From: Candidatus Caccoplasma sp.
GTDB taxonomy: Bacteria > Bacteroidota > Bacteroidia > Bacteroidales > G3-4614
Reading direction: 5' to 3'
Length of the DNA: 64,000 bases
Assembly: GCA_045587545.1 (NCBI GenBank)
Contig: JAZNCN010000028.1
Span: 79,045 to 143,044, forward strand
Shown here: positions 2,406 through 49,684 of the stretch, piece by piece
Layout of the letters: every line of letters starts with the position of its first letter
Position numbering within the stretch: the first letter of the stretch is position 1
Translations under genes and position numbers: made by a program
The notes under the pieces: model-generated
What the model saw: the letters and a program-made list of their open reading frames with translations, nothing else
Told to the model about the DNA's origin: nothing
Database searches by the model: none

Positions 2406-4925
<2,520 letters not shown>

Positions 4926-8696: not shown

Positions 8697-11600
8697 ATGG
8701 ATAAAAATGAGTGTAGAATATATTATACTACAACTAATAATAAGATTATCAATTTTGAACATGCTGAAATTGATGCTAAGATTATTTCACACATATATAA
8801 AGATAAAGGAGTAATTACCTTTGATAAACCAATTACTAAGATTCCTCATAGTGCTTTCTCTAGGTGTTCTACATTTACTAGTATTGAAATTCCTAATAGT
8901 GTAACTAGCATTGAAAATTCTGCATTTGAGTATTGCTCTGAACTTACAAGCGTTGAGATACCTGATGGTGTAAAAAGTATTGGTTGGTGGGCGTTCTTTA
9001 AATGTTCTAAACTTACAAATGTTGAGATTCCTAATAGTGTAACTAGCATTGGCAATGCTGCTTTTTTGTGTTGCTCTGGACTTACAAATGTTGAGATTCC
9101 TCAGGGTGTGAAAAGTATTGGCAAACGTGCCTTTGCAAAATGCTCTAAACTTAAAAGTATTATTATTTCTAAAAGTGTAGAGGAAATTGGAAATTATGTT
9201 CTTTCAGAGTGTACTGAACTTGAAAATATAATTATAAACACAGAAAATAAGAAATATGATTCCCGAGGGGATTGTAATGCCATAATAGATACAACGAATA
9301 ATATTCTTATTGCAGGATGTAAAAATACAATTATTCCTGATAATATTACGGAAATAGGAGAGCATGCATTTGAATTCTGTAAATTAAAAACAATAGTAAT
9401 TCCAAAAGGTGTTACAAAAATAGGGGATGGAGCATTTTTTTGTTGTGAATCTCTTAAAACTTTAGAGTTACCTCTTGGTATAAATGAAATAGGATTGAGT
9501 GCTTTTGAAAATTGTTCAGCTCTTGAAAGAATTATCATTCCTAATAGTGTGACTAAAATAGGAGATAGAGCATTTGCATTTTGTAAATCTTTAACTCAAT
9601 TTGATGGTAATCTTGCTCTTGGAGACAAAAGATGTTTAGTTATAGACGGGACTTTAGTTGCATTTGCAGCTGCAGGAGTTTCTGATTATATTTTTCCAAA
9701 AGAAATTTCTTCTTATAATCGAACTGTTTTTTATAATAATAAACTTAAGACCTTAAGAAAAACATTAGATGTTTCGATTGGAAAAGGAAATGATTCGCAC
9801 CAACAAACAAAAGTCAAAGGTTCCAATAATATACACACCAAAACATGTATTCCAATATGTAACAATAACTCAATTATAGATGATTATTTTCAGCAAATTT
9901 CATCTATTGCAAAAGAGGAAGAAAAATGCAAATGGATTAAATCAGGAACAAATGTAACAATTCAAGGATTAACTTTATCACGAGGTAATTTTTACCTAGG
10001 TAATTATTATAAAGTTAATGAATGTCCTAATGGAATCAAATACTCATCGAAAGATAAAATTATCTTATGGGCAACTATAAATCCTGAGCTTTCAATTTTA
10101 AAAGGAACTTTCCGAAAAGAAGAATATTTCCTTTCTTATTATGATTTATCTCCAGAAGGTCGTTTTATATATTTGTCTTGGTTAGCTAATTTAATTCTAA
10201 CAAAAGATGTACCTCATGATATTTTACTATTGCATATTTGTGGAATACAACTACGCTTGTTTTTAGATATTGAATCCTCTATAGAAGAAAAAGAAGATTT
10301 AATAAATTATTTAATTAACTTGAAATCAGAATTATCTGAAAAGTCTAGAATAGCATATTACATTGATGAAGTAATAGATATATCATTAGCTAAATTCTTT
10401 TTGGGTCAAGCAAATAGGTTTTCTATTGAAAGTTTTAATTTCTTTAAAACTCATAAATATATTGATACTACAATCTTTTCTAAAGATAGTAATGATTGTT
10501 TTAATTCTGATGTAATTTTTGATATATATGCTGATTTGTACTCTAATAGTCCTTTAGCTAAATGTAAAAATTGGTTTACTTTATTTTTTGAAAAAAATAA
10601 AAAATATTATAAGTCATTAGATTCAAGGTGCAAATATAAAGAAGTAGTTCAAATACCTAATGTTTTACCTTCTAATTCATATTTGTATATTCAAAAAGAT
10701 TATAACTTTTGTCTCTTTGAAACAATTAATTACTCACAATATGTTATTGAATTAATAGAGAAATATTTTAAGAAATATAATGGAGATTTTTTGTCATTTA
10801 AACAAATATATCCATATACTATAAACCAAAATTCTCCGTTGGTTTATTTTTCACTTCCTAAATATATAACAGAGAATGAATCTCAAATTTTATCAAATTT
10901 TAAAGATAGTCTTGAATCTATTGTAAATTGCAAAGCTAATGTAGTTAATTACGATACTATAGCAGAATTGTTTGGAATTAAATGTAATGAGGATTTTTTA
11001 ACAAGACCTGTTATAGAATGTATTATATCCGGTTTGAGAAATTTAGGATATGGTATAGTTCCTAATATTAAAGTTTCTTGTGAAGACTTAATTAAAACTA
11101 AAGAATCATGTGTCATATATAAATACCCTAAGTCTTTGAAACTTAGCATAGACCAAGAATTTAAATATGCAGAAATTCTATGTAAATTATTAGCAATAAT
11201 AATGCAAGGTACTGATGTAAATAATCAAGAATTGGACGCAGTTTATGAGAATTTCACAAAATTAACTAATAATAAACATAATATTATATATTTATATTCT
11301 TATTTTCTATGGCTTTCACAAAGAAAGAATGTTTTAAATAAGAGTATAAAACAAGAATTGTCAACACTTGCAAGGTTTTATAAAAAAATTTTTATACAAG
11401 TTATATTAAATGTCATAACTACTTCTGATTTTGTTAATGAAAAAAGAATTTTAGCACTAAATAAACTAATTCCATTCTTAGATGAAAATATAGAATCAGT
11501 ACATTCTTTAATACATAAGTCTCTAGTTGGTGATTTTGATTCTGTTGTAACTGATAAATCCGATAATAAATCAGTTAGTATAAGTCAAGATATTGAACTT

Positions 11601-26895: not shown

Positions 26896-29316
26896 TTATA
26901 TCCACCTTCTCCAGAAAGGTTTTTTCTTGGTTACTGAATATTGCTCACCATAACCATAACCGTAGCCATAACCATAGCCATATTTATTCTTGTACCCATA
27001 ACCGTAACCATAACCATAACGTTTATATCCGTAAACTTTTGATTTTATATCTACTGCATTTACCAGTATATATAAATTTCTCAAACGGTCTGTTTTTACC
27101 AAATCCTCAAGAGCATCAATATATTTCTTTGATGAATATTTTGCTCTCATAATGTAAAGATTTAAATCAACATATGGCGTTATCAAGAATGTATCCGAAA
27201 CCATTCCGACAGGAGCTGTATCAACAATTATATATTCATATCTTTCACGTAAATAATCAAACACATCGCCTAATGATGAATTCATCAATAACTCATTTGG
27301 ATTTGGTGGTGTCGGTCCTGCTGGTAACAAATCAAGATATTCAGACATACCAGAAGGAACAATTAATGAAGACAAATCACTCTCTTTACCTGACAGATAT
27401 GTTACAATTCCTCTTGATGTTGATAATGAAAAATATTTTCTTACTTGTGGACGTCTAATATCTAATCCTACCAATATGGTTTTTTTCTTTGCCAAAGCAA
27501 AACTTAAAGCCAAGTTTGCAGAACAAAATGTTTTTCCTTCTTGAGTTGTTGTTGATGTAACATTAATTATTTTACGTTCCGGAACATCTAATATGGCTTG
27601 TAAATTATTACGAGTCAAACGGAATAACTCAACAATAGGAGCTGTAGATTTGGGCTTAACGACAAAATTATCTTTTGTTTCGTTTACTGAAATCTCTCCT
27701 AAAACCGGTATCTCTGTCAATCGTTCAACATCAATTCTATCTTTAAATGTTACGGTAAACAATCCTATAACAAATATTACTATAGCCGGAATTATTAAAC
27801 CAACAGCCAATGCAGTCATTAACGATTTAGGGCGATTAGGCTCAACCGGACCCCCTGTTGGCTCAGGAGAATCTATTATTGTAGCTATTGGCACTGTCAA
27901 TGCCTGACTCAATGCATTTTCTTCACGTTTCTTTAACAAGAACAAATATAATTCATTCTTGATAGCTTGTTGACGCATAACTTCTGCCATCTGTCTTTCA
28001 ATTGCAGGAGCAGTAGACAATTTGCTATCTATATCATTATATTTATTTTGTAATTGTTGTTGTTCATGTTTAAGAATTAAACGTGTTGACTCAATAGAAT
28101 TCTTTACACCCTCTCTTAAGGTTATTATATTCTGTTCAATACGTGAAATTGAGGGATTAATTCCTGAAGAGGTATATAATAATCTTGCACGAGCCATTAA
28201 TTCTTGATTATACTTTTTAATAATAGAATTAAATGATGCATTTTCAATACCTAATTCAGGTATTATTGAAAATTCATTATCTTTATCATTAATAAATTTC
28301 TCAACATAATCAATCAGATTAAGTTGCATCTCGGCATTATATATCTCTTCCTTAATTTTTTGAGACTCTTGTAATGCTGTTGCGGCATTATCTTCAGGAG
28401 ATATGAGTTTGTAATCTTTTTTGTATGCCTCTATCTCACGCTCAACATCTCCTAATTCTTGAGCTATAGCCAATATACGCTCATCTATAAATTTACCGGT
28501 ATTTATTAATGCTTGATTTTTTTCATTTACACTTAATTCATTATAGTAATATACAACTTTCTCCAATATATCTTTTGCCTGCTGAATATTGTATGTTCTT
28601 AATGACATTGTAAGAATTGTTGAACCCTCTGTTAAAACCTCTGGGATTATTGAGTTTGACAGATATCGTGCTTTACCATAAGGTGATTCAACGGTTATTA
28701 CAATATCATCTTTGGGCATATATACTCCATTCAAACGAATCATTCTCAATGTTATGCCTCCTATTTGAATATCTATAGGCTCATTCTTTAATATATGTGT
28801 CTGTGTTTTATTACCATATGATATTTGCAATGAATATGTACCGTTTTGTAATGAGGGTATTGCATCAACTCTTATAGGACCATGTAAATTCATTACATCT
28901 GCTGAATCAATTTCAAGTAATATTGGAGTTGAATCATATATATTAAAACTTCTAAGTCCTTTTTTCTGAAAATATGTTGTATGAATTTTTAAATCCATAA
29001 CCACTTTCATCATTATTGCTCGAGAGCGCATAACTTCTGTCTCATTTTCCAAGTTACTGCGATTTGTTCTCAATCCTAATGTTTCAAGCATAATATTATC
29101 TGCAGCACCACTGTTTCTATCGTTCTTCATCAATATTGATGTAGATACTTTATAGACATCATTCTTTTGAGCTAAATCAAAAGCGGTATATCCTACCGAT
29201 AAGACAGCGCACAAAACAAACCATTTCCAATAAACTAAATATGTGAATAAAATCTCTCTGAAATCAGCAAGTTTATTCTGGTCTTCTTCTTTTGAAAAGA
29301 ATTTATTATTATCCAT
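26896..29316 (-). CDS. polysaccharide co-polymerase / BY-tyrosine autokinase (Wzc-like)
   Basis: 806-aa ORF. Wzz-type N-terminus with 2 TM helices and a coiled coil. C-terminal kinase Walker A (TTTQEGKT). Tyr-rich tail YGYKRYGYGYGYGYKNKYGYGYGYGYGYG. Confidence 0.85.
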   Translation of the reverse strand: MDNNKFFSKEEDQNKLADFREILFTYLVYWKWFVLCAVLSVGYTAFDLAQKNDVYKVSTSILMKNDRNSGAADNIMLETLGLRTNRSNLENETEVMRSRAIMMKVVMDLKIHTTYFQKKGLRSFNIYDSTPILLEIDSADVMNLHGPIRVDAIPSLQNGTYSLQISYGNKTQTHILKNEPIDIQIGGITLRMIRLNGVYMPKDDIVITVESPYGKARYLSNSIIPEVLTEGSTILTMSLRTYNIQQAKDILEKVVYYYNELSVNEKNQALINTGKFIDERILAIAQELGDVEREIEAYKKDYKLISPEDNAATALQESQKIKEEIYNAEMQLNLIDYVEKFINDKDNEFSIIPELGIENASFNSIIKKYNQELMARARLLYTSSGINPSISRIEQNIITLREGVKNSIESTRLILKHEQQQLQNKYNDIDSKLSTAPAIERQMAEVMRQQAIKNELYLFLLKKREENALSQALTVPIATIIDSPEPTGGPVEPNRPKSLMTALAVGLIIPAIVIFVIGLFTVTFKDRIDVERLTEIPVLGEISVNETKDNFVVKPKSTAPIVELFRLTRNNLQAILDVPERKIINVTSTTTQEGKTFCSANLALSFALAKKKTILVGLDIRRPQVRKYFSLSTSRGIVTYLSGKESDLSSLIVPSGMSEYLDLLPAGPTPPNPNELLMNSSLGDVFDYLRERYEYIIVDTAPVGMVSDTFLITPYVDLNLYIMRAKYSSKKYIDALEDLVKTDRLRNLYILVNAVDIKSKVYGYKRYGYGYGYGYKNKYGYGYGYGYGYGEQYSVTKKKPFWRRWI

Positions 29317-43477: not shown

Positions 43478-44272
43478 ATGATAACTGCATCTGTTGTAAC
43501 ATATAATACCGATATTGAGGAGTTAAACAACTGCCTCGCTGACATTGAGGCATCAATGATAGAGCGAGTATATGTTATTGACAACTCAAGCAGAGATTAT
43601 ATTGAACAAGCCTGCAAAGCTTTTGAGAAAGCAGAATATATACCATCAGAGAACAGAGGCTTTGGAGCAGGGCACAATATTGCCATACGTGAAGCAATGG
43701 CTAAGGGTAGCAAGTATCATATTGTTATGAATAGCGATATCAGTTTTAAAAGCTCAGCAATAGAGGTGCTATACAACTATATGAACAGCAACCCCGATGT
43801 TGCACAGGCACAACCTAAAATTGTATATCCCAACGGAGAGATACAATACACCTGCCGACTACTGCCAACACCTGCAAACCTTATTTTCAGACGTTTCATG
43901 CCAAAGAGTTGGAGCAAGAAGATGGACGACAGGTATCTGCTTAAGAACAGAGATTTAACGAAAGAGATGAATATCCCCTATCATCAAGGAAGTTTTATCT
44001 TTTTCAGGACAGAGTGTTTTAAAAAGGTTGGATTATTTGACGAACGCTTTTTTATGTACCCCGAGGATATTGATATAACCCGCCGAATGCATAAGTATTA
44101 CCGAACAATGTATGTCCCATATACAACAATTATACACAACCACAGAGCAGAATCGTATAAAAACAGGAAGATGCTTAAAATACATATCATAAATATGATA
44201 AAGTATTTTAATAAGTGGGGCTGGGTATTTGATAAGGAACGGAGAGAGTGGAATAAGAAGTTTAGTTGTTAG
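43478..44272 (+). CDS. family 2 glycosyltransferase
   Basis: 264-aa ORF. SVVTYN...VIDNSS...GFGAGHN and the MNSD DxD-like region are typical of rhamnosyltransferase-like GT2 enzymes. Confidence 0.8.
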   Translation: MITASVVTYNTDIEELNNCLADIEASMIERVYVIDNSSRDYIEQACKAFEKAEYIPSENRGFGAGHNIAIREAMAKGSKYHIVMNSDISFKSSAIEVLYNYMNSNPDVAQAQPKIVYPNGEIQYTCRLLPTPANLIFRRFMPKSWSKKMDDRYLLKNRDLTKEMNIPYHQGSFIFFRTECFKKVGLFDERFFMYPEDIDITRRMHKYYRTMYVPYTTIIHNHRAESYKNRKMLKIHIINMIKYFNKWGWVFDKERREWNKKFSC

Positions 44273-44309
44273 TATTATTAGACTAATTAGTCAAATTAGC
44301 CCAAATAGC
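44262..44309 (+). repeat. TTAG-repeat element: core TTAGTTGTTAG + 4 nonamers (tattattag actaattag tcaaattag cccaaatag)
   Basis: The GT2 stop codon (44270-44272) is the last TAG of the core. The 20-mer 44262-44281 is identical to the reverse complement of 48488-48507. Confidence 0.9.
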
Positions 44310-44310
44310 A

Positions 44311-44340
44311 AAAGGTTGTAACGCATGTGTTACAACCTTT
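44311..44340. terminator. bidirectional terminator hairpin aaaggttgtaac-gcatgt-gttacaaccttt
   Basis: 12-bp perfect stem between GT2 (+) and dcp (-). Confidence 0.75.
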
Positions 44341-44396
44341 GTCTTATTATTGAGTTTTTATTGTTTTTCTAAAAACTGACAGCTAATAGCTGATAG

Positions 44397-46487
44397 CTAT
44401 TTTATTCCGTCGCGTTTCATTATTGCTTCAATGCTGGGCTCTGCTCCGCGGAAATCAATGTATAGTTTCATCGGTTCTTCTGTTCCTCCTTTTTCAAGTA
44501 TGTTTTTGCGGAATGAGTCGGCTGTTGCTTTGTCAAATATTCCGTTTTGTTTGAATAGTGCAAATGCATCGGCATCTAATACTTCTGCCCATTTGTAGCC
44601 ATAGTAGCCTGCTGCATAGCCTCCGTCAAATATGTGTCCGAAGTGAGTACTCATATTGGTTCCTTCGGGTACGGGCAACAACACCGCTTTTGCCATTGAT
44701 GAATACTCTTGTTGCAACATATTTGTTGGTATTTCGCCTTGCAGTGTGTGCCAACCCATATCTAAATATCCTAATGATAATTGACGTAGGCATGCGTATG
44801 CTGCATTGAATTGTTTTGTTGCTTCTACTTTCTCTATTAACTCTACCGGTATTTTCTCGCCTGTTTGGTAATGCTCGGCAAATGTATCTAAGAACTCTTT
44901 TTCGCTCAACCAGTTCTCCATTATTTGTGAGGGCAACTCAACAAAGTCGCGATATACTGATGTTCCTGATACTGATGCATAGTTACATTTGGTCAGCATT
45001 CCGTGTAATGAGTGTCCGAACTCATGTAGGAATGTTCCTACTTCATCAAAACTTAATAGTGCCGGTTTGTCTTTGGTCGGTTTGGTAAAGTTCATTACAA
45101 GTAGTATGTGCGGACGGCTGTCGGTTCCGTCTTTTTCGACCCATTGTTTTTTAAAGTCGGTTTTCCATGCTCCTTGTTGTTTTGTTTCGCGAGGGAAGAA
45201 ATCGGTGTATAGTATTCCCATATAATTACCATCGGCATCGGTTACTTTAAACACCTCAACTTCTTCGTTATATACAGGTATGTCTGTTCTCTTTTCAAAT
45301 TGCAAGCCATATAGTGTGGTTGCCAAACCAAATACTCCTTTTTTTACCTTCTCTAAATCAAAGTATGGTTTTAGCATCTCATCGTTCAAATCGTAATTTT
45401 TGGTTTTGTATAAATCTGAGTAGTATGACCAATCCCATGGCATTAGATCAACCTCTTTTCCCTCTACCTCTTTTGCAAAGGCTTTGATTTTTTCTACATC
45501 TTTTTTGGCTGCCGGTGTATAGGCTTCTAACAGATTATCAAGTAAGTTATATACTGCTTCGGGTGTTTTTGCCATACGGTTATCAAGTACGTATGTTGCC
45601 CAATCTTTGTATCCTAACAGGTTTGCCAACTCTTTACGTGCTGTTACCTGCTCTAATATGTTTTGTGTGTTATCATACTCTCCGCCTAATGCTACTGAGT
45701 TGTATGCCCGGTACATCTTCTCTCTTAACTCTCTGTTTTGAGAATATTTCATAAATGGGAAGAATGAGGGGTATGATACATTAAAGAGATATCCCTCTTT
45801 CCCTTTTGCCTCGGCACGCATTTTAGCTGCTTCTCTTGCTCCTTCGGGTAGTCCTGCAAGCTCTTCTTCTGTTGTCAAAATCATTTCAAATGCATTGCTC
45901 GATTTCAACTGATTTTGACCGAATGTTAATGATAGACTATCTAATTTTGAGGTTAGTTTTCGGTATTGTTCTTTTTGTTCGCCTTGTAGGTTTGCTCCGT
46001 TACGAACCATCGATTTATATGAATCTTCAAGAAGTGTTAGTTGCTCGCGTGTTAAATCTAATGTCTCTCTTGTCTCATATACTGCTTTTATTCTCTCAAA
46101 GAGTTGTTCATTTAATGTAAGGTTATTTGTATGCTCTGTCAGCATGGGCATCAACTCTTGTGAAAGGTTCATCATTGCCTCATCGCCATCTGCCGATAAG
46201 AGGTTGAAAAATATGTTTGTTACACGGTTTAATAGCAATCCTGATGCTTCGTATGCTTCGATTGTGTTCTCAAATGTTGGTGCTTCGGGATTGTTTATTA
46301 TTGCATCAACTTCTTGCTGATGTTGTTTTATTCCCTCTATCATGGCCGGTTTGTAATCTGCCAACTCAATTTTGTCGAATGGTGCTGTTCCGAATGGACC
46401 ATCAAACTCTGCCAATAATGGATTTTGTCTGCAACTGCTCATTGTAATTGTTGTGATTAATGCTAAAATTGTAATTAATTGTTTCAT
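44397..46487 (-). CDS. dcp: M3-family peptidyl-dipeptidase (Dcp-like)
   Basis: 696-aa ORF with a lipoprotein signal (TITMSSC). Zinc motif HEFGH, followed by an M3 C-terminal domain. Confidence 0.85.
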   Translation of the reverse strand: MKQLITILALITTITMSSCRQNPLLAEFDGPFGTAPFDKIELADYKPAMIEGIKQHQQEVDAIINNPEAPTFENTIEAYEASGLLLNRVTNIFFNLLSADGDEAMMNLSQELMPMLTEHTNNLTLNEQLFERIKAVYETRETLDLTREQLTLLEDSYKSMVRNGANLQGEQKEQYRKLTSKLDSLSLTFGQNQLKSSNAFEMILTTEEELAGLPEGAREAAKMRAEAKGKEGYLFNVSYPSFFPFMKYSQNRELREKMYRAYNSVALGGEYDNTQNILEQVTARKELANLLGYKDWATYVLDNRMAKTPEAVYNLLDNLLEAYTPAAKKDVEKIKAFAKEVEGKEVDLMPWDWSYYSDLYKTKNYDLNDEMLKPYFDLEKVKKGVFGLATTLYGLQFEKRTDIPVYNEEVEVFKVTDADGNYMGILYTDFFPRETKQQGAWKTDFKKQWVEKDGTDSRPHILLVMNFTKPTKDKPALLSFDEVGTFLHEFGHSLHGMLTKCNYASVSGTSVYRDFVELPSQIMENWLSEKEFLDTFAEHYQTGEKIPVELIEKVEATKQFNAAYACLRQLSLGYLDMGWHTLQGEIPTNMLQQEYSSMAKAVLLPVPEGTNMSTHFGHIFDGGYAAGYYGYKWAEVLDADAFALFKQNGIFDKATADSFRKNILEKGGTEEPMKLYIDFRGAEPSIEAIMKRDGIK

Positions 46488-46574: not shown

Positions 46575-48404
46575 ATGAAACAAAGATTTATATTTTTAAT
46601 AAAGGTTTACTTCTATTTTTTAGCAATATTTGTACTGCTTAAACCCATTTTTATGTTGTGCTATAACAACATTTATGCCGGGACTCCAATCAGCGAATGG
46701 TTCAAAATTATATATAACGGACTATCTATGGATATTTCTGTTGTATCGTATATTATTGCTCCTATATTGTTAATAACCATATTCTCTGTTTGGTTCAAAG
46801 GTAAATGGGTGAAATATGCCAATAATATATATTTGGGCGTTATATCGGTATTGCTTTCTATTGTAGTTATAACCGATTTGGCTCTATATTCGTACTGGGG
46901 GTTTAGAATTGATGCCACTCCTATTTTTTATTTAGCAAACCCGTCTGAGGCTCTTGCAAGTGCTAAGAGTTGGGAGTTAATTCTCTTCCCTTTTATTATG
47001 ATTATAACCTCAATTGCCATATTCTACCCTTTGAGAAAATTTTGTAAGGGTTGCGACAAATGGAAAGGTTATGGCAATGTGACTAAAGGTATAGCTGAGA
47101 CTCTGCTTTTTATTTTTATTGGAGGTTTGGTATTTTTAGGTATCAGGGGTGGAATTGGCACCTCTACTATGAATGTTGGCAGAGCCTACTATTCTACCGA
47201 AATCAAATATAATCATGCGGCTGTAAACCCTATATTCAGTTTGTTATACTCTGCTACTCATCAAAACAATTTTGCCGATTATGCAAGGTTTATGACCGAT
47301 GATGAGGCTGAGCAAATTTTCAGTTCACTTTTTAGTGATAAGGTTTATATTCCTAATGATGACGAGTGTTGGTTAAACAACAGAAAACCTAATATAGTTT
47401 TTATAATTTTAGAGGGTTTTTCAAAGGGTGCTTTATTTAATAATGGCGTTGAAATTGCTCCAAACTTGCTTAAACTATCGCGTGAAGCTATTTCGTTTAA
47501 TAACATATATGCCAACAGTTTTAGGACTGACAGAGGACTTTTTTCTGTAATTGATGGCTTCCCGGCTCTTCCTACAACTTCTGTAATGAAATATCCTGAC
47601 AAGATGACAACTTTTCCGTCTCTTGTAGGGGCTATAAAAGAGAATGGCTACAACACATCGTTCTTGTATGGCGGTGATGCCAATTTTACCAATATGCGCT
47701 CATTTTTTGCAACAGGCGGAACTGATGAGTTTGTTACCGACGTTGAATTAAACGTAAGCCGTATTGAATCAAAATGGGGTGCTAACGACCATATTACTTT
47801 TGAGTATCTTAAAAACGATATTTTAAATTATAATAAGGAGAATCCTTTCTTAAAGGTATTCTTAACATTAAGTAGCCATGAGCCTTTTGAGGTTCCATTT
47901 AAAAAGTTTGAAAATCCCTACTTGAACTCTATTGCCTATACTGATAGTTGCTTGGGTAATTTTATTGATAATTTAAAAGAGAATAAAATTTGGAAGAATA
48001 CATTGGTTGTTCTTATTCCTGACCATGGTGTTAATTATCTGTTAGGGTATAACGACAGGGGGAAAGAGAGCCACTCAATACCTGCCGTATGGTGCGGTGG
48101 AGCAATAAAGGAGATGAAACAGATTGATGATTATGCTTCTCAATCGGATATGGCTTCTACTCTACTTGCCCAGCTGGGTATAGACTATGGCAAATTCAAA
48201 TATAGCAGAAACATTGCCGATACTACTCTTACAAATTTTGCATATTGGACCTTCCCTAATGGTTTTGCCATGGCTGACAGCTCAAATTTTGTTATTTATG
48301 ATTGCGATGCTAATTCTGCCACAACTATGGAAGGGGATAAAAGTGAACAACTTTTGCAACAGGGTAAAGCCATATTGCAAAAGTTGTATGATAGGGTTAA
48401 ATAG
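46575..48404 (+). CDS. LTA-synthase-family sulfatase-like transferase (membrane-anchored)
   Basis: 609-aa ORF. An N-terminal polytopic membrane domain plus a C-terminal sulfatase-fold domain (ILEGFS, SSHEPF, PDHG). Confidence 0.75.
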   Translation: MKQRFIFLIKVYFYFLAIFVLLKPIFMLCYNNIYAGTPISEWFKIIYNGLSMDISVVSYIIAPILLITIFSVWFKGKWVKYANNIYLGVISVLLSIVVITDLALYSYWGFRIDATPIFYLANPSEALASAKSWELILFPFIMIITSIAIFYPLRKFCKGCDKWKGYGNVTKGIAETLLFIFIGGLVFLGIRGGIGTSTMNVGRAYYSTEIKYNHAAVNPIFSLLYSATHQNNFADYARFMTDDEAEQIFSSLFSDKVYIPNDDECWLNNRKPNIVFIILEGFSKGALFNNGVEIAPNLLKLSREAISFNNIYANSFRTDRGLFSVIDGFPALPTTSVMKYPDKMTTFPSLVGAIKENGYNTSFLYGGDANFTNMRSFFATGGTDEFVTDVELNVSRIESKWGANDHITFEYLKNDILNYNKENPFLKVFLTLSSHEPFEVPFKKFENPYLNSIAYTDSCLGNFIDNLKENKIWKNTLVVLIPDHGVNYLLGYNDRGKESHSIPAVWCGGAIKEMKQIDDYASQSDMASTLLAQLGIDYGKFKYSRNIADTTLTNFAYWTFPNGFAMADSSNFVIYDCDANSATTMEGDKSEQLLQQGKAILQKLYDRVK

Positions 48405-48454
48405 TTGTTAGTTTTTAGTTAAATGGTGGTGCATTGAACTGCAACTACTTGCTT

Positions 48455-48507
48455 CTTAGTCTAATTTTTCCAATTAGGCTAATTGGGCTAATAATACTAA
48501 CAACTAA
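48455..48507 (-). repeat. TTAG-repeat element (minus strand): core GTTAGTTGTTAG + nonamers tattattag cccaattag cctaattgg aaaaattag
   Basis: The fprA stop codon (48497-48499) is the last TAG of the core. This is an inverted copy of the element at 44262-44309. Confidence 0.9.
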
Positions 48508-49684
48508 CAACTGCTTTAATATTCTCAGCAAGTTGCTTGCTAAGGGCTTTTACATCAACATCTAAGCCCGCTTGTTTTATCTCAATTTTAGGCTCAATTA
48601 TTTGCCATTTCATTGTTTCAGCAAATGCTGTTAGGCGTTTTACTGCCGCTCCTGCCCATGAGAATGAGCCAAAGCATGCAAAGGTCTTGTTCTTTATTAT
48701 TCTTCCTTCCAACTTAACACATAAATCGGCTACTTTGGGAAATAATTCTGAATTATAGGTTGGCGAGCCTAATATAAGGGTATTATATTTGAATACATCG
48801 CGTAATACATATGATGCATCTACCTCTGACAAATCGTGCATTACCACATTCTTAATGCCTGCCTCAACAAGTGCTTCGTATATGTTTTTTGCTACATCGG
48901 CTGTATGCCCATACATACTGCCATATGCTATTACCACGCCTTCATCGCCTTGATAACGTGCCATTTTCAGATATTGCTCAACTATCTGAGGAACGTACTT
49001 TTTCCAAACGGGACCGTGTGTTGAACAGATATAGTTAATGGGTAATGATGATAGTTTTTCTATGGCTTTTTCAACAGGACCTCCATATTTTCCTACAATA
49101 TTTGAGTAGTAACGATACATTTCGTCGGTAAAAATTGTCATATCAGCCGCTTCGTCCATTACATCTTCACCTACTGCGCCAAATGCGCCAAATGCATCGC
49201 CTGAAAAAAGGAGTCCTTCTTCATTGATATATGTCATCATTGTTTCGGGCCAATGTACCATGGGAGTTAAATGGAACGTTAATGTTTTTTCTCCAATATT
49301 AAGAGTCTCTCCATCTTTTACCTCTTTTACGTTTTTTGTTATTCCGTAAAAGCCCGATAGCATTCCTAATGTCTTTATGTTTCCTATTATCTGAATATCG
49401 GGGTATTTTTCAATAAGTTTAAGCAACGATGATGAGTGGTCGGGTTCCATATGGTTTACCACTACATAATCAATTTTATCATTGCCTATAACCTCTTCTA
49501 TCTGCGAGAAAAAGATACTGTTATATGAATACTCAACGGTATCGATAAGTACGTTTATTTTATCTTTTATAAGGTAAGCATTGTAACTTACTCCGTAGGG
49601 TAATGGCCACAAACGTTCAAATAAGGTTGTTGCGTTATCGTTTACCCCTACGTAATATACATTGTTTGTTATCTCTCTTTTCAT
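48497..49684 (-). CDS. FprA-family flavodiiron protein (A-type flavoprotein)
   Basis: 395-aa ORF. Metallo-beta-lactamase-like di-iron domain (HMEPDHS) plus a C-terminal flavodoxin domain. Confidence 0.85.
   Translation of the reverse strand: MKREITNNVYYVGVNDNATTLFERLWPLPYGVSYNAYLIKDKINVLIDTVEYSYNSIFFSQIEEVIGNDKIDYVVVNHMEPDHSSSLLKLIEKYPDIQIIGNIKTLGMLSGFYGITKNVKEVKDGETLNIGEKTLTFHLTPMVHWPETMMTYINEEGLLFSGDAFGAFGAVGEDVMDEAADMTIFTDEMYRYYSNIVGKYGGPVEKAIEKLSSLPINYICSTHGPVWKKYVPQIVEQYLKMARYQGDEGVVIAYGSMYGHTADVAKNIYEALVEAGIKNVVMHDLSEVDASYVLRDVFKYNTLILGSPTYNSELFPKVADLCVKLEGRIIKNKTFACFGSFSWAGAAVKRLTAFAETMKWQIIEPKIEIKQAGLDVDVKALSKQLAENIKAVVSC

Follow-up and report, generated by a model that had tools for sequence, protein, structure and literature searches.

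Why do the last two codons and the stop codon of a glycosyltransferase gene lie inside a repeat that recurs, in inverted form, at the end of a second gene nearby? The question is raised by positions 44262-44309 of the window, by which we mean the whole 64,000-nucleotide stretch of Candidatus Caccoplasma sp. DNA analyzed here; the segment spans the 3' end of a glycosyltransferase family 2 (GT2) open reading frame (ORF). An earlier note, made from the letters of the window, had read it as one copy of a previously unannotated family of about 47-bp elements that insert at or capture stop codons. Our analysis indicates that the segment is probably the start of the GT2 3' untranslated region (3'UTR), composed of two simple-repeat families and belonging to a class of polar intergenic heptamer repeats, with stop capture as a by-product. 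What stood of the earlier reading is the 3'-end family, its co-orientation with the upstream gene and the lineage specificity of the protein tails; what fell is the definition of the unit and its novelty.

The observations from which that reading started hold. The 20-mer TTAGTTGTTAGTATTATTAG at 44262-44281 on the + strand is the exact reverse complement of 48488-48507, at the end of a flavodiiron (FprA-type) gene, and both copies run into 9-nt repeats, four units each; past the 20-mer, only the 9-nt periodicity is common to the two. The ORF coordinates likewise bear out that the second TAG of the core is the actual stop of GT2 and of fprA, with the final two GT2 codons, AGT TGT (i.e., SC), and the TAG stop falling inside the heptamer core. 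The same core closes thiC (3174-4874), which terminates with ...GNVSC-TAG within a 9-copy TGTTAGT array (4862-4925). At the GT2 end, the features are the following:

43478-44272, + strand: GT2 glycosyltransferase ORF, 264 aa (Pfam Glycos_transf_2, PF00535, 1.7e-14).
44262-44272, + strand: heptamer core TTAGTTGTTAG, about 1.5 units of (TAGTTGT)n, with the stop codon at 44270-44272.
44273-44308, + strand: nonamer stretch of the palindromic N-CYAATTRG family, i.e., the junction unit TATTATTAG, then ACTAATTAG, TCAAATTAG and CCCAAATAG.
44311-44340, both strands: terminator-like hairpin common to the convergent GT2 and M3-peptidase genes.
44369-44396, - strand: post-stop heptamer array of the M3 peptidase gene (dcp), TAG followed by CTATCAGCTATTAGCTGTCAGTTTTTAG (from sequence and RNA fold).
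44397-46487, - strand: M3 peptidase (dcp) ORF (Pfam PF01432, 3.9e-138).

The nonamer units at 44273-44308 read tattattag, actaattag, tcaaattag and cccaaatag. The hairpin that the earlier note had placed after them is present, and its T-rich tail and stem of 13 pairs on the + strand and 12 pairs on the - strand are those of an intrinsic (Rho-independent) terminator. In the predicted RNA fold, the post-stop array of dcp pairs with the GT2 core, and at both convergent spacers (the GT2 and fprA sites) the opposing post-stop arrays pair to close a spacer-sized hairpin (z = -3.7 and -4.3). When the window was compared with Rfam 15 at the gathering score, its sole match was a tRNA and 44200-44420 gave nothing above noise, which excludes a known RNA family for the element. 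A metagenome scan with a 23-mer of the GT2 junction returned 0 matches, and a protein identical to GT2 was absent from the records.

The second copy and the thiC array are laid out in the same manner:

46575-48404, + strand: sulfatase-family ORF, 609 aa (Pfam), the TAG stop of which is the first TAG of a heptamer array.
48402-48419, + strand: post-stop heptamers of the sulfatase ORF, TAGTTGTTAGTTTTTAGT.
48461-48496, - strand: fprA 3'-end nonamer array, TATTATTAG, CCCAATTAG, CCTAATTGG and AAAAATTAG, read from 48496 to 48461 as tattattag, cccaattag, cctaattgg and aaaaattag.
48497-48512, - strand: heptamer array overwriting the fprA end, GTT GTT AGT TGT TAG (VVSC*).
48497-49684, - strand: flavodiiron (FprA-type) ORF, 395 aa (Pfam ODP and Flavodoxin_1).
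4862-4925, + strand: (TGTTAGT)9 array forming the thiC C-terminus (VSC*), the stop and the spacer 3' of thiC.

How general this arrangement is was assessed in the genome holding the window (G000; 2.13 Mb in 29 contigs, about 36% G+C, 99.5% complete), for which the gene model consists of our own long-ORF calls rather than a curated annotation (1668 ORFs covering 89.5% of the genome, with 10.5% left as non-ORF, i.e., intergenic, sequence). Protein families were assigned by Pfam, RNA families by Rfam 15 and tandem repeats by TRF. For comparison, we used 12 species of the genus (G000-G011) together with one genome from each of 29 other families of the order and, at the phylum level, 301 Bacteroidota genomes, 6 of which contain (TAGTTGT)3 arrays.

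Within the window, TTAGTTGTTAG (at most 1 mismatch) has 11 matches, compared with 2.45 +/- 1.57 in shuffled sequences; the over-representation of the core is not due to chance. Across G000, exact copies of TAGTTGTTAG number 122, of which 112 are non-ORF, compared with 21 copies (2 non-ORF) of the control word, which is the same word read backwards. The heptamer repeats are thus overwhelmingly intergenic, as are those of the class to which we assign them below. The commonest 7-nt tandem unit of the genome is AACAACT, the same unit as TTAGTTG (42 TRF arrays), and a search allowing 1 mismatch yields 216 core clusters and 67 arrays with at least 3 units. In the zone from -20 to +29 around stop codons, 161 matches are in the sense and 16 in the antisense orientation (about 10:1), in agreement with the earlier note's proposal of a dispersed family enriched at the 3' ends of coding sequences and co-oriented with the upstream gene. 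Altogether, 128 of 1663 ORFs (7.7%) end with the core AGTTGTTAG at or just past the stop (at most 1 mismatch, -20 to +30).

The position of the first unit relative to the stop is far from arbitrary. In 26 genes, the offset is -2 and the gene's own TAG is the first repeat TAG; in 11 genes, it is -9 and the protein carries the tail -SC; and in 9 genes, it is -16 and the tail is -VVSC. These are exactly the phases that put a repeat TAG in frame, and the repeat indeed supplies the stop codons of dozens of genes, as had been suspected. Because the 7-nt unit places TAG in all frames, an array can provide the last two to five codons (-SC, -VVSC) as well as the stop. In genes without these offsets, the first unit mostly starts within the next 8 bases, and TAA or TGA stops often sit on the TTA of the first TTAG (TAAGTTGTTAG, TGAGTTGTTAG). 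The core is found at 15% of gene ends that face a convergent gene, compared with 4.9% of tandem ends, and convergent pairs with arrays on both sides number 14 where 4.5 are expected (Fisher p = 4e-6). Array orientation tracks the gene and not the direction of replication, with neighboring convergent genes each having a co-oriented array. A smaller set of about 10-12 arrays has the G-free AACTAAC orientation and ends 4-13 nt ahead of a start codon. Both the number and the sequence of units vary continuously among arrays, and the variant units TCAGTTA and CAGTTAT occur among the heptamers. TAG is intact in 69% of units; its T is 78% conserved, the second least of the seven positions, and positions 2-5 and 7 are at least 93% conserved.

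The second component is an independent repeat. The nonamer arrays are of the 9-base palindromic type CTAATTAG, i.e., an 8-bp palindrome plus one base, N-CYAATTRG, and G000 has 23 intergenic arrays with exact 9-nt spacing. The exact 20-mer occurs twice in the 2.13-Mb genome, and about 12 loci have the junction (C/T)AGTTAT-TAGTATTATTAG leading into nonamer arrays. Because the 20-mer is found only twice and the copies differ beyond it, there is no discrete unit of about 47 bp. What had been described as a 47-bp element is instead a join of two independent simple-repeat families, each variable in copy number.

Hairpins form the third layer. Most nonamer arrays run into a repeated terminator hairpin, AAACGGAGTTGCA...TGCAACTCCGTTT, and two further modules are set precisely between heptamer units, with constant polarity and with U-rich units always following. 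Module A is a double hairpin, CGGC-loop-GCCG CCC-loop-GGG, in about 29-35 copies; module B is ACGGTGC-TAC-GCACC, in 16 copies. The stems of both covary (for module A, CGGC/GCCG, CAAC/GTTG, TGGC/GCCA and CGGTT/AACCG). The antisense strand of the module hairpins folds slightly better than the sense strand, which has no excess of G-U pairs, and on these grounds a sense-strand RNA structure was rejected for the modules.

Separately, the terminator at 44311-44375 recurs at about 6 other loci as AATAACA(A/C)TAAAAACTCAATAATAAG-CAAAAGGTTGTAACG...CGTTACAACCTTTTG, for example at the 3' ends C1:55000, C3:70794, C8:50371, C27:11232 and C28:152346 (contig:position in G000), and intrinsic terminators in G000 seem to be repeat modules that are themselves dispersed.

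Across species, heptamer and nonamer arrays are distributed alike. Both abound in 9 of the 12 members of the genus, where the small hairpin modules between heptamer units also occur, and both are missing from G004, G007 and G011 (flavodiiron protein identity about 62%). Elsewhere in the order, the genomes sampled from 29 other families have almost none (at most 5 heptamer matches, and 7+7 nonamer matches in G031), and the hairpin modules are likewise nearly lacking. The arrays multiplied within one sub-lineage of the genus. The protein tails, which the earlier note had proposed to check in orthologs, are lineage-specific: flavodiiron -VVSC and GT2 -(F/I/V)SC are confined to the subclade G000/G006/G008/G010, with G005, G009 and G001 ending in ...IIKAIRN*, ...SINNL* and ...ILKDYKQ* without the repeat, and thiC ends in -VSC* in G000, G006 and G008, with distant species having ...NNDKKEA* directly ahead of thiH. 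Judged from sequence, the -SC and -VVSC tails are derived and replace other C-termini. The thiC array itself has 9 units in G000, about 2 in G006 and 4 in G008, with a degenerate array in G010.

A TAG-to-TGG mutation in the repeat lets thiC of G010 be translated through the degenerate heptamers up to ...GDVSCWLLVF*, a repeat-encoded extension of the tail.

Array positions at orthologous 3' ends were compared between G000 and four other species:

G000 and G006 (94% mean amino acid identity): 4 shared, 1 in G000 only, 0 in G006 only.
G000 and G010 (83%): 6 shared, 2 in G000 only, 3 in G010 only.
G000 and G005 (80%): 0 shared, 2 in G000 only, 2 in G005 only.
G000 and G009 (77%): 1 shared, 1 in G000 only, 3 in G009 only.

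Array positions are thus common to close species and turn over across the genus; G005 and G009 are likewise array-rich despite having 0-1 positions in common with G000. Copy number and inserted modules differ even between species at 94-97% protein identity, and at the orthologous GT2 site, G006 has one nonamer unit fewer than G000. Larger differences are bounded by the repeats as well, with indels ranging from 31 bp to 6.2 kb. At the sulfatase 3' end, G006 and G010 carry 31 nt that G000 lacks, namely a module B with one unit, set between two TAGTTTTTAG copies. Exactly after the GT2 TAG, G006 has a 975-bp cassette (DUF3791, DUF3990 and a small ORF) flanked by an 18-nt direct repeat, AAGAAGTTTAGTTGTTAG; the GT2 core is duplicated on either side, and the final gene of the cassette itself ends in the core. 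A 6.2-kb segment, present in G006 and missing in G000, is delimited by the GT2 and dcp arrays.

The cassette (locus L098, 2297-3281, on contig C95 of G006), at a site orthologous to 44272/44273 of the window, has a TAnnTTTG-like promoter stretch of its own; its small ORF encodes 73 aa, and the DUF3990 protein has weak ART-PolyVal similarity. The same cassette sequence follows the GT2 stop in G008, as compared at its near end, an insert of about 690 bp is found in G002, and G000 and G010 have none.

The repeats are not confined to this genus. Exact (TAGTTGT) arrays of at least 3.4 units occur in many filamentous Cyanobacteria, several Bacteroidota families and scattered members of other phyla, and (TAGTTGT)n with n of at least 3 is present in Stigonema, Calothrix, Rivularia, Richelia, Dolichospermum, Microcoleus and others. 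At 80 such loci (Cyanobacteria, Bacteroidota and others), the median distance from the TAG end to a co-oriented ORF stop is 5 nt, compared with 72-114 nt from the opposite end of the array to a stop; the TAG end is within 30 nt of the stop in 18 of 23 cyanobacterial and 20 of 25 other cases, the offsets -2, -9 and -16 included. Since the same stop-abutting polarity is seen across phyla, it is a property of the repeat class and not of this genus. The STRR-like look of the arrays had suggested a cyanobacterial genome; such an origin was rejected, because by its flavodiiron gene the genome falls in Bacteroidales.

Collectively, the arrays fall within the established group of intergenic heptamer simple-sequence repeats (STRR/LSSR repeats, GGGAATC of Xanthomonas, GGGGAYT of Nostoc, TAACTGA of Beggiatoaceae), with which they share every feature tested, i.e., dispersed 7-nt tandem units, intergenic location, stop/start polarity and patchy, lineage-specific abundance. 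The kind is therefore not previously unannotated, as had been proposed. The closest precedent for the positional features is provided by Rehm et al. 2015 (PMC4692102), who described GGGAATC in Xanthomonas and GGGGAYT in Nostoc/Anabaena PCC 7120 as dispersed 7-nt tandem units, mostly intergenic; downstream repeats lie 0-50 bp from the stop or overlap it, with the G-rich strand as the coding strand, upstream repeats are on the non-coding strand (so that the complementary strand is the coding one), 70-75 convergent inverted pairs were counted, and no function was found. All four positional features recur in the TAGTTGT arrays. The latter differ, however, in being AT-rich, without G-quadruplex capacity, and in carrying a stop triplet, through which they truncate and re-tail proteins; they are joined with palindromic nonamer arrays and mini-hairpins in a small-genome gut Bacteroidales genus; and their positions turn over within that genus, whereas the Xanthomonas and Nostoc repeats are at comparatively conserved locations. 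Related TAACTGA intergenic direct repeats have been published for marine Beggiatoaceae, Cyanobacteria and five Bacteroidetes (MacGregor 2015, PMC4679880); most of them lie ahead of start codons, one lies just after a stop in reverse orientation, and regulatory roles were put forward as suggestions. The two sets of repeats are alike in being short, intergenic and patchy in Cyanobacteria and Bacteroidetes, with close strains differing in 7-nt copy steps, and our variant units TCAGTTA and CAGTTAT correspond to the reverse complement of TAACTGA. Unlike the Beggiatoa repeats, which are found mainly before starts, about 90% of the oriented copies in G000 come after stops, with about 10-12 start-proximal arrays. 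Cyanobacterial STRR heptamers were reportedly described by Mazel and colleagues in 1990, and Elhai and colleagues are said to have found in 2008 small dispersed repeats (SDRs) inserted in heptamer arrays; the 15-30-nt hairpin modules between heptamer units in G000 are reminiscent of SDRs, which come from another phylum. For start-proximal heptamers, a Nostoc preprint gives modest reporter effects.

What process would place such arrays at gene ends? Under the reading we prefer, a polar (TAGTTGT)n array grew or recombined into the gene end, leaving a remnant at GT2, the 3'UTR of which would then run from the heptamer remnant through the palindromic nonamers to the intrinsic terminator. The arrays, lying between stop codons and terminator hairpins, would be transcribed as the first part of the 3'UTR. 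Replication slippage and short-homology recombination, rather than a dedicated transposase, would drive their spread and change. Their strict orientation may stem from a constraint on the RNA that differs between the strands: mRNA would tolerate the A/C-rich, G-free strand only in a leader, and the U/G-rich strand would be tolerated, or mildly useful, past the stop, e.g., as an unstructured spacer or as a U-rich tract beside hairpins and terminators. Stop capture and the odd C-terminal tails are most likely by-products. Several points weigh against this account. Every gene boundary behind it comes from our own long-ORF model, and transcription and mRNA 3' ends are deduced solely from the position of the arrays between stops and hairpins. 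Slippage alone leaves the spread to more than 100 loci unexplained, and the ends of synteny breaks are only modestly enriched near arrays (12 of 69, against an intergenic background of 8.5%). The 10:1 orientation, the pile-up at the stop and the cross-phylum polarity also suit junk DNA poorly, and a conserved function could underlie them.

Such a function is the substance of the rival to which we assign an appreciable, if clearly minor, probability, namely that the arrays are a selected 3'UTR RNA (or transcription) element acting on universal machinery. They could form a U-rich tract or spacer that makes hairpins into terminators or exonuclease blocks, they could pause RNA polymerase (a perfect TAGTTGT unit would fit the G(-10) Y(-1) G(+1) consensus), or they could be candidate sites for a single-strand RNA-binding protein (cold-shock, S1 or RRM). 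That orientation follows the gene rather than replication, that the polarity is the same across phyla and for other heptamers (PMC4692102), that arrays concentrate at convergent ends and co-occur on both sides of them, that opposing arrays close spacer-sized hairpins and that modules A and B have covarying stems with U-rich units always following all speak for a selected element. Against it, array positions are not kept at about 80% protein identity, near relatives differ in copy number and module content, and the arrays are dispensable to three species of the genus and to almost all other Bacteroidales; the hairpin stems are weak (-2 to -13 kcal/mol) and free of a sense-strand G-U excess, and a crude count finds terminators downstream of 35% of array-bearing genes compared with 32% of others. 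Rho loading on the C-rich antisense strand was set aside as the cause of the polarity, since the polarity is the same in Cyanobacteria, which are not known to have Rho, and since the unit lacks YC dinucleotides. Far less credible is a translational safety device, in which three-frame stops would end read-through or frameshifted ribosomes. Every frame of (TTAGTTG)n does contain a TAG (and, on the opposite strand, a TAA), both window copies have their nonamer TAGs in phase with the actual stop codon, and arrays abut stops to the nucleotide. Nevertheless, the orientation giving TAA in three frames is avoided about 10-fold past stops, only one of the seven unit positions varies more than the T of TAG, nonamer TAGs are out of frame elsewhere (e.g., C21:24219), no stop triplet can be read on either strand of the published polar heptamer GGGAATC (PMC4692102), and in the G010 thiC (VSCWLLVF) the repeat lengthens the protein instead of guarding it. 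The backup stops suggested by the earlier note are thereby disfavored, and we hold this explanation to be highly improbable.

The burst of three repeat families in one lineage, with modules seated exactly between heptamer units in fixed polarity, could also be the work of a discrete non-autonomous mobile element inserted at stops by an enzyme, with heptamers as its ends or its target. It would resemble miniature inverted-repeat transposable elements (MITEs), repetitive extragenic palindromes (REPs) and bacterial interspersed mosaic elements (BIMEs), or SDRs. Presence/absence sites with 10-18-nt duplicated flanks would be possible target-site duplications, and the GGG-TAG end of module A recalls GTAG-tagged REPs (PMC3733652). 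Deletion between direct repeats explains the duplicated flanks equally well, however, and the flank duplications of 10 and 18 nt differ between events; the copies share 20 nt and diverge beyond, lengths and units vary continuously, and the 47-bp stretch has no terminal inverted repeats, which is not what a MITE would look like. REPs and BIMEs are extragenic, mostly 3' of coding regions and of lineage-specific abundance, and are tagged palindromes linked to REP-associated tyrosine transposases (RAYTs) (PMC3733652). The arrays share with them the downstream position, probable transcription, lineage-specific abundance and small hairpins, but consist of tandem 7- and 9-nt units rather than 20-40-nt palindromes with a GTAG or CGTC tag, small palindromes being confined to the separate modules A and B. 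The Y1 transposase domain of RAYTs (Y1_Tnp, PF01797) is present in 2 of the 12 genomes of the genus and absent from G000, which rules out REP/RAYT mobilization there; 7 of the 9 repeat-bearing genomes lack it. Another potential trans factor, the four-helix-bundle-suffix protein (TIGR04258), is encoded by 8 of the 9 repeat-bearing and by none of the 3 repeat-free species, with one gene bracketed by arrays, a correlation that is confounded by phylogeny and vanishes at the phylum level, where 1 of 6 genomes with (TAGTTGT)3 (G000 only) has such genes, compared with 51 of 301 overall; a role as the factor is thus not supported for this unit. We consider an enzyme-inserted element distinctly unlikely. 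Unlikely as well, in our estimate, is a broader proposal in which heptamers, nonamers and hairpin modules constitute a recombination-driven modular gene-junction system with a conserved action where the ribosome leaves the mRNA. Polar arrays anchored at stops and starts would then serve as universal splice points at which modules and cassettes are exchanged without frame damage, the DUF3791/DUF3990 cassette and the 6.2-kb segment beside GT2 being examples, and the polarity might come, for instance, from polymerase pausing or release on U/G-rich, C-free RNA.

The arrays alter the C-termini of housekeeping proteins (ThiC, the flavodiiron protein and the glycosyltransferase), flag places where genomes of this uncultured gut Bacteroidales genus vary in structure, and will mislead gene callers and assemblers. 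The polarity rule, with the G/U-rich strand beginning at a stop codon and the A/C-rich strand finishing at a start codon, applies to this unit in G000, in Cyanobacteria and in other phyla, and to unrelated published units. Notable in the present case are the stop-bearing AT-rich unit, the co-expanded palindromic nonamers, the embedded mini-hairpins, and the comparative record of turnover and repeat-bounded indels. A small, AT-rich and repeat-dense genome with repeat-free sister species offers a natural system in which tolerated parasites can be set against a gene-boundary signal.

Several additional repeats accompany the arrays in G000. A dispersed repeat of about 80 nt, TTAACAAACATTAGTTTGTTGAATCTGCTCACGCTCGGCAAAGTTTAAGTAAACTTATTTTGCCCTCGCTTACTCGCAGATTTGT, follows the heptamers at several 3' ends (C20:37700-37800, C28:153350-153440 and C8:72715-72800), with a related copy located 3' of fprA in G008 and G010; a MITE and a small RNA are both candidate identities. 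The palindromic repeat GTAGGGACA(C/G)AGCATGCTGTGTCCCTAC recurs 3' of heptamers (at the C28:150337 3' end and at C8:57831, C8:19245 and C10:105364) and starts with GTAG as REP elements do, in a genome without RAYT. Three paralogous four-helix-bundle-suffix genes of about 185 aa (TIGR04258 and TIGR02436) lie outside the window, at C28:193647-194204, C28:249149-249706 and C14:21129-21695, the first of them bracketed by CAGTTGTTAGTTGT and nonamers upstream and by nonamers and ACAACTAACAACT downstream. Arrays of more than 600 bp made of the 9-nt unit CTAGG(T/A)TAG / CTAGGTTGG are found at contig ends (C28:249720-250290 and C20:80760-80900) and adjoin a gene of this four-helix-bundle family. The window also holds an (ACCATA)12 hexamer tract at 26947-27020 and, at 8865-9179, a coding-like 69/138-nt tandem repeat, apparently of a repeat-protein gene.

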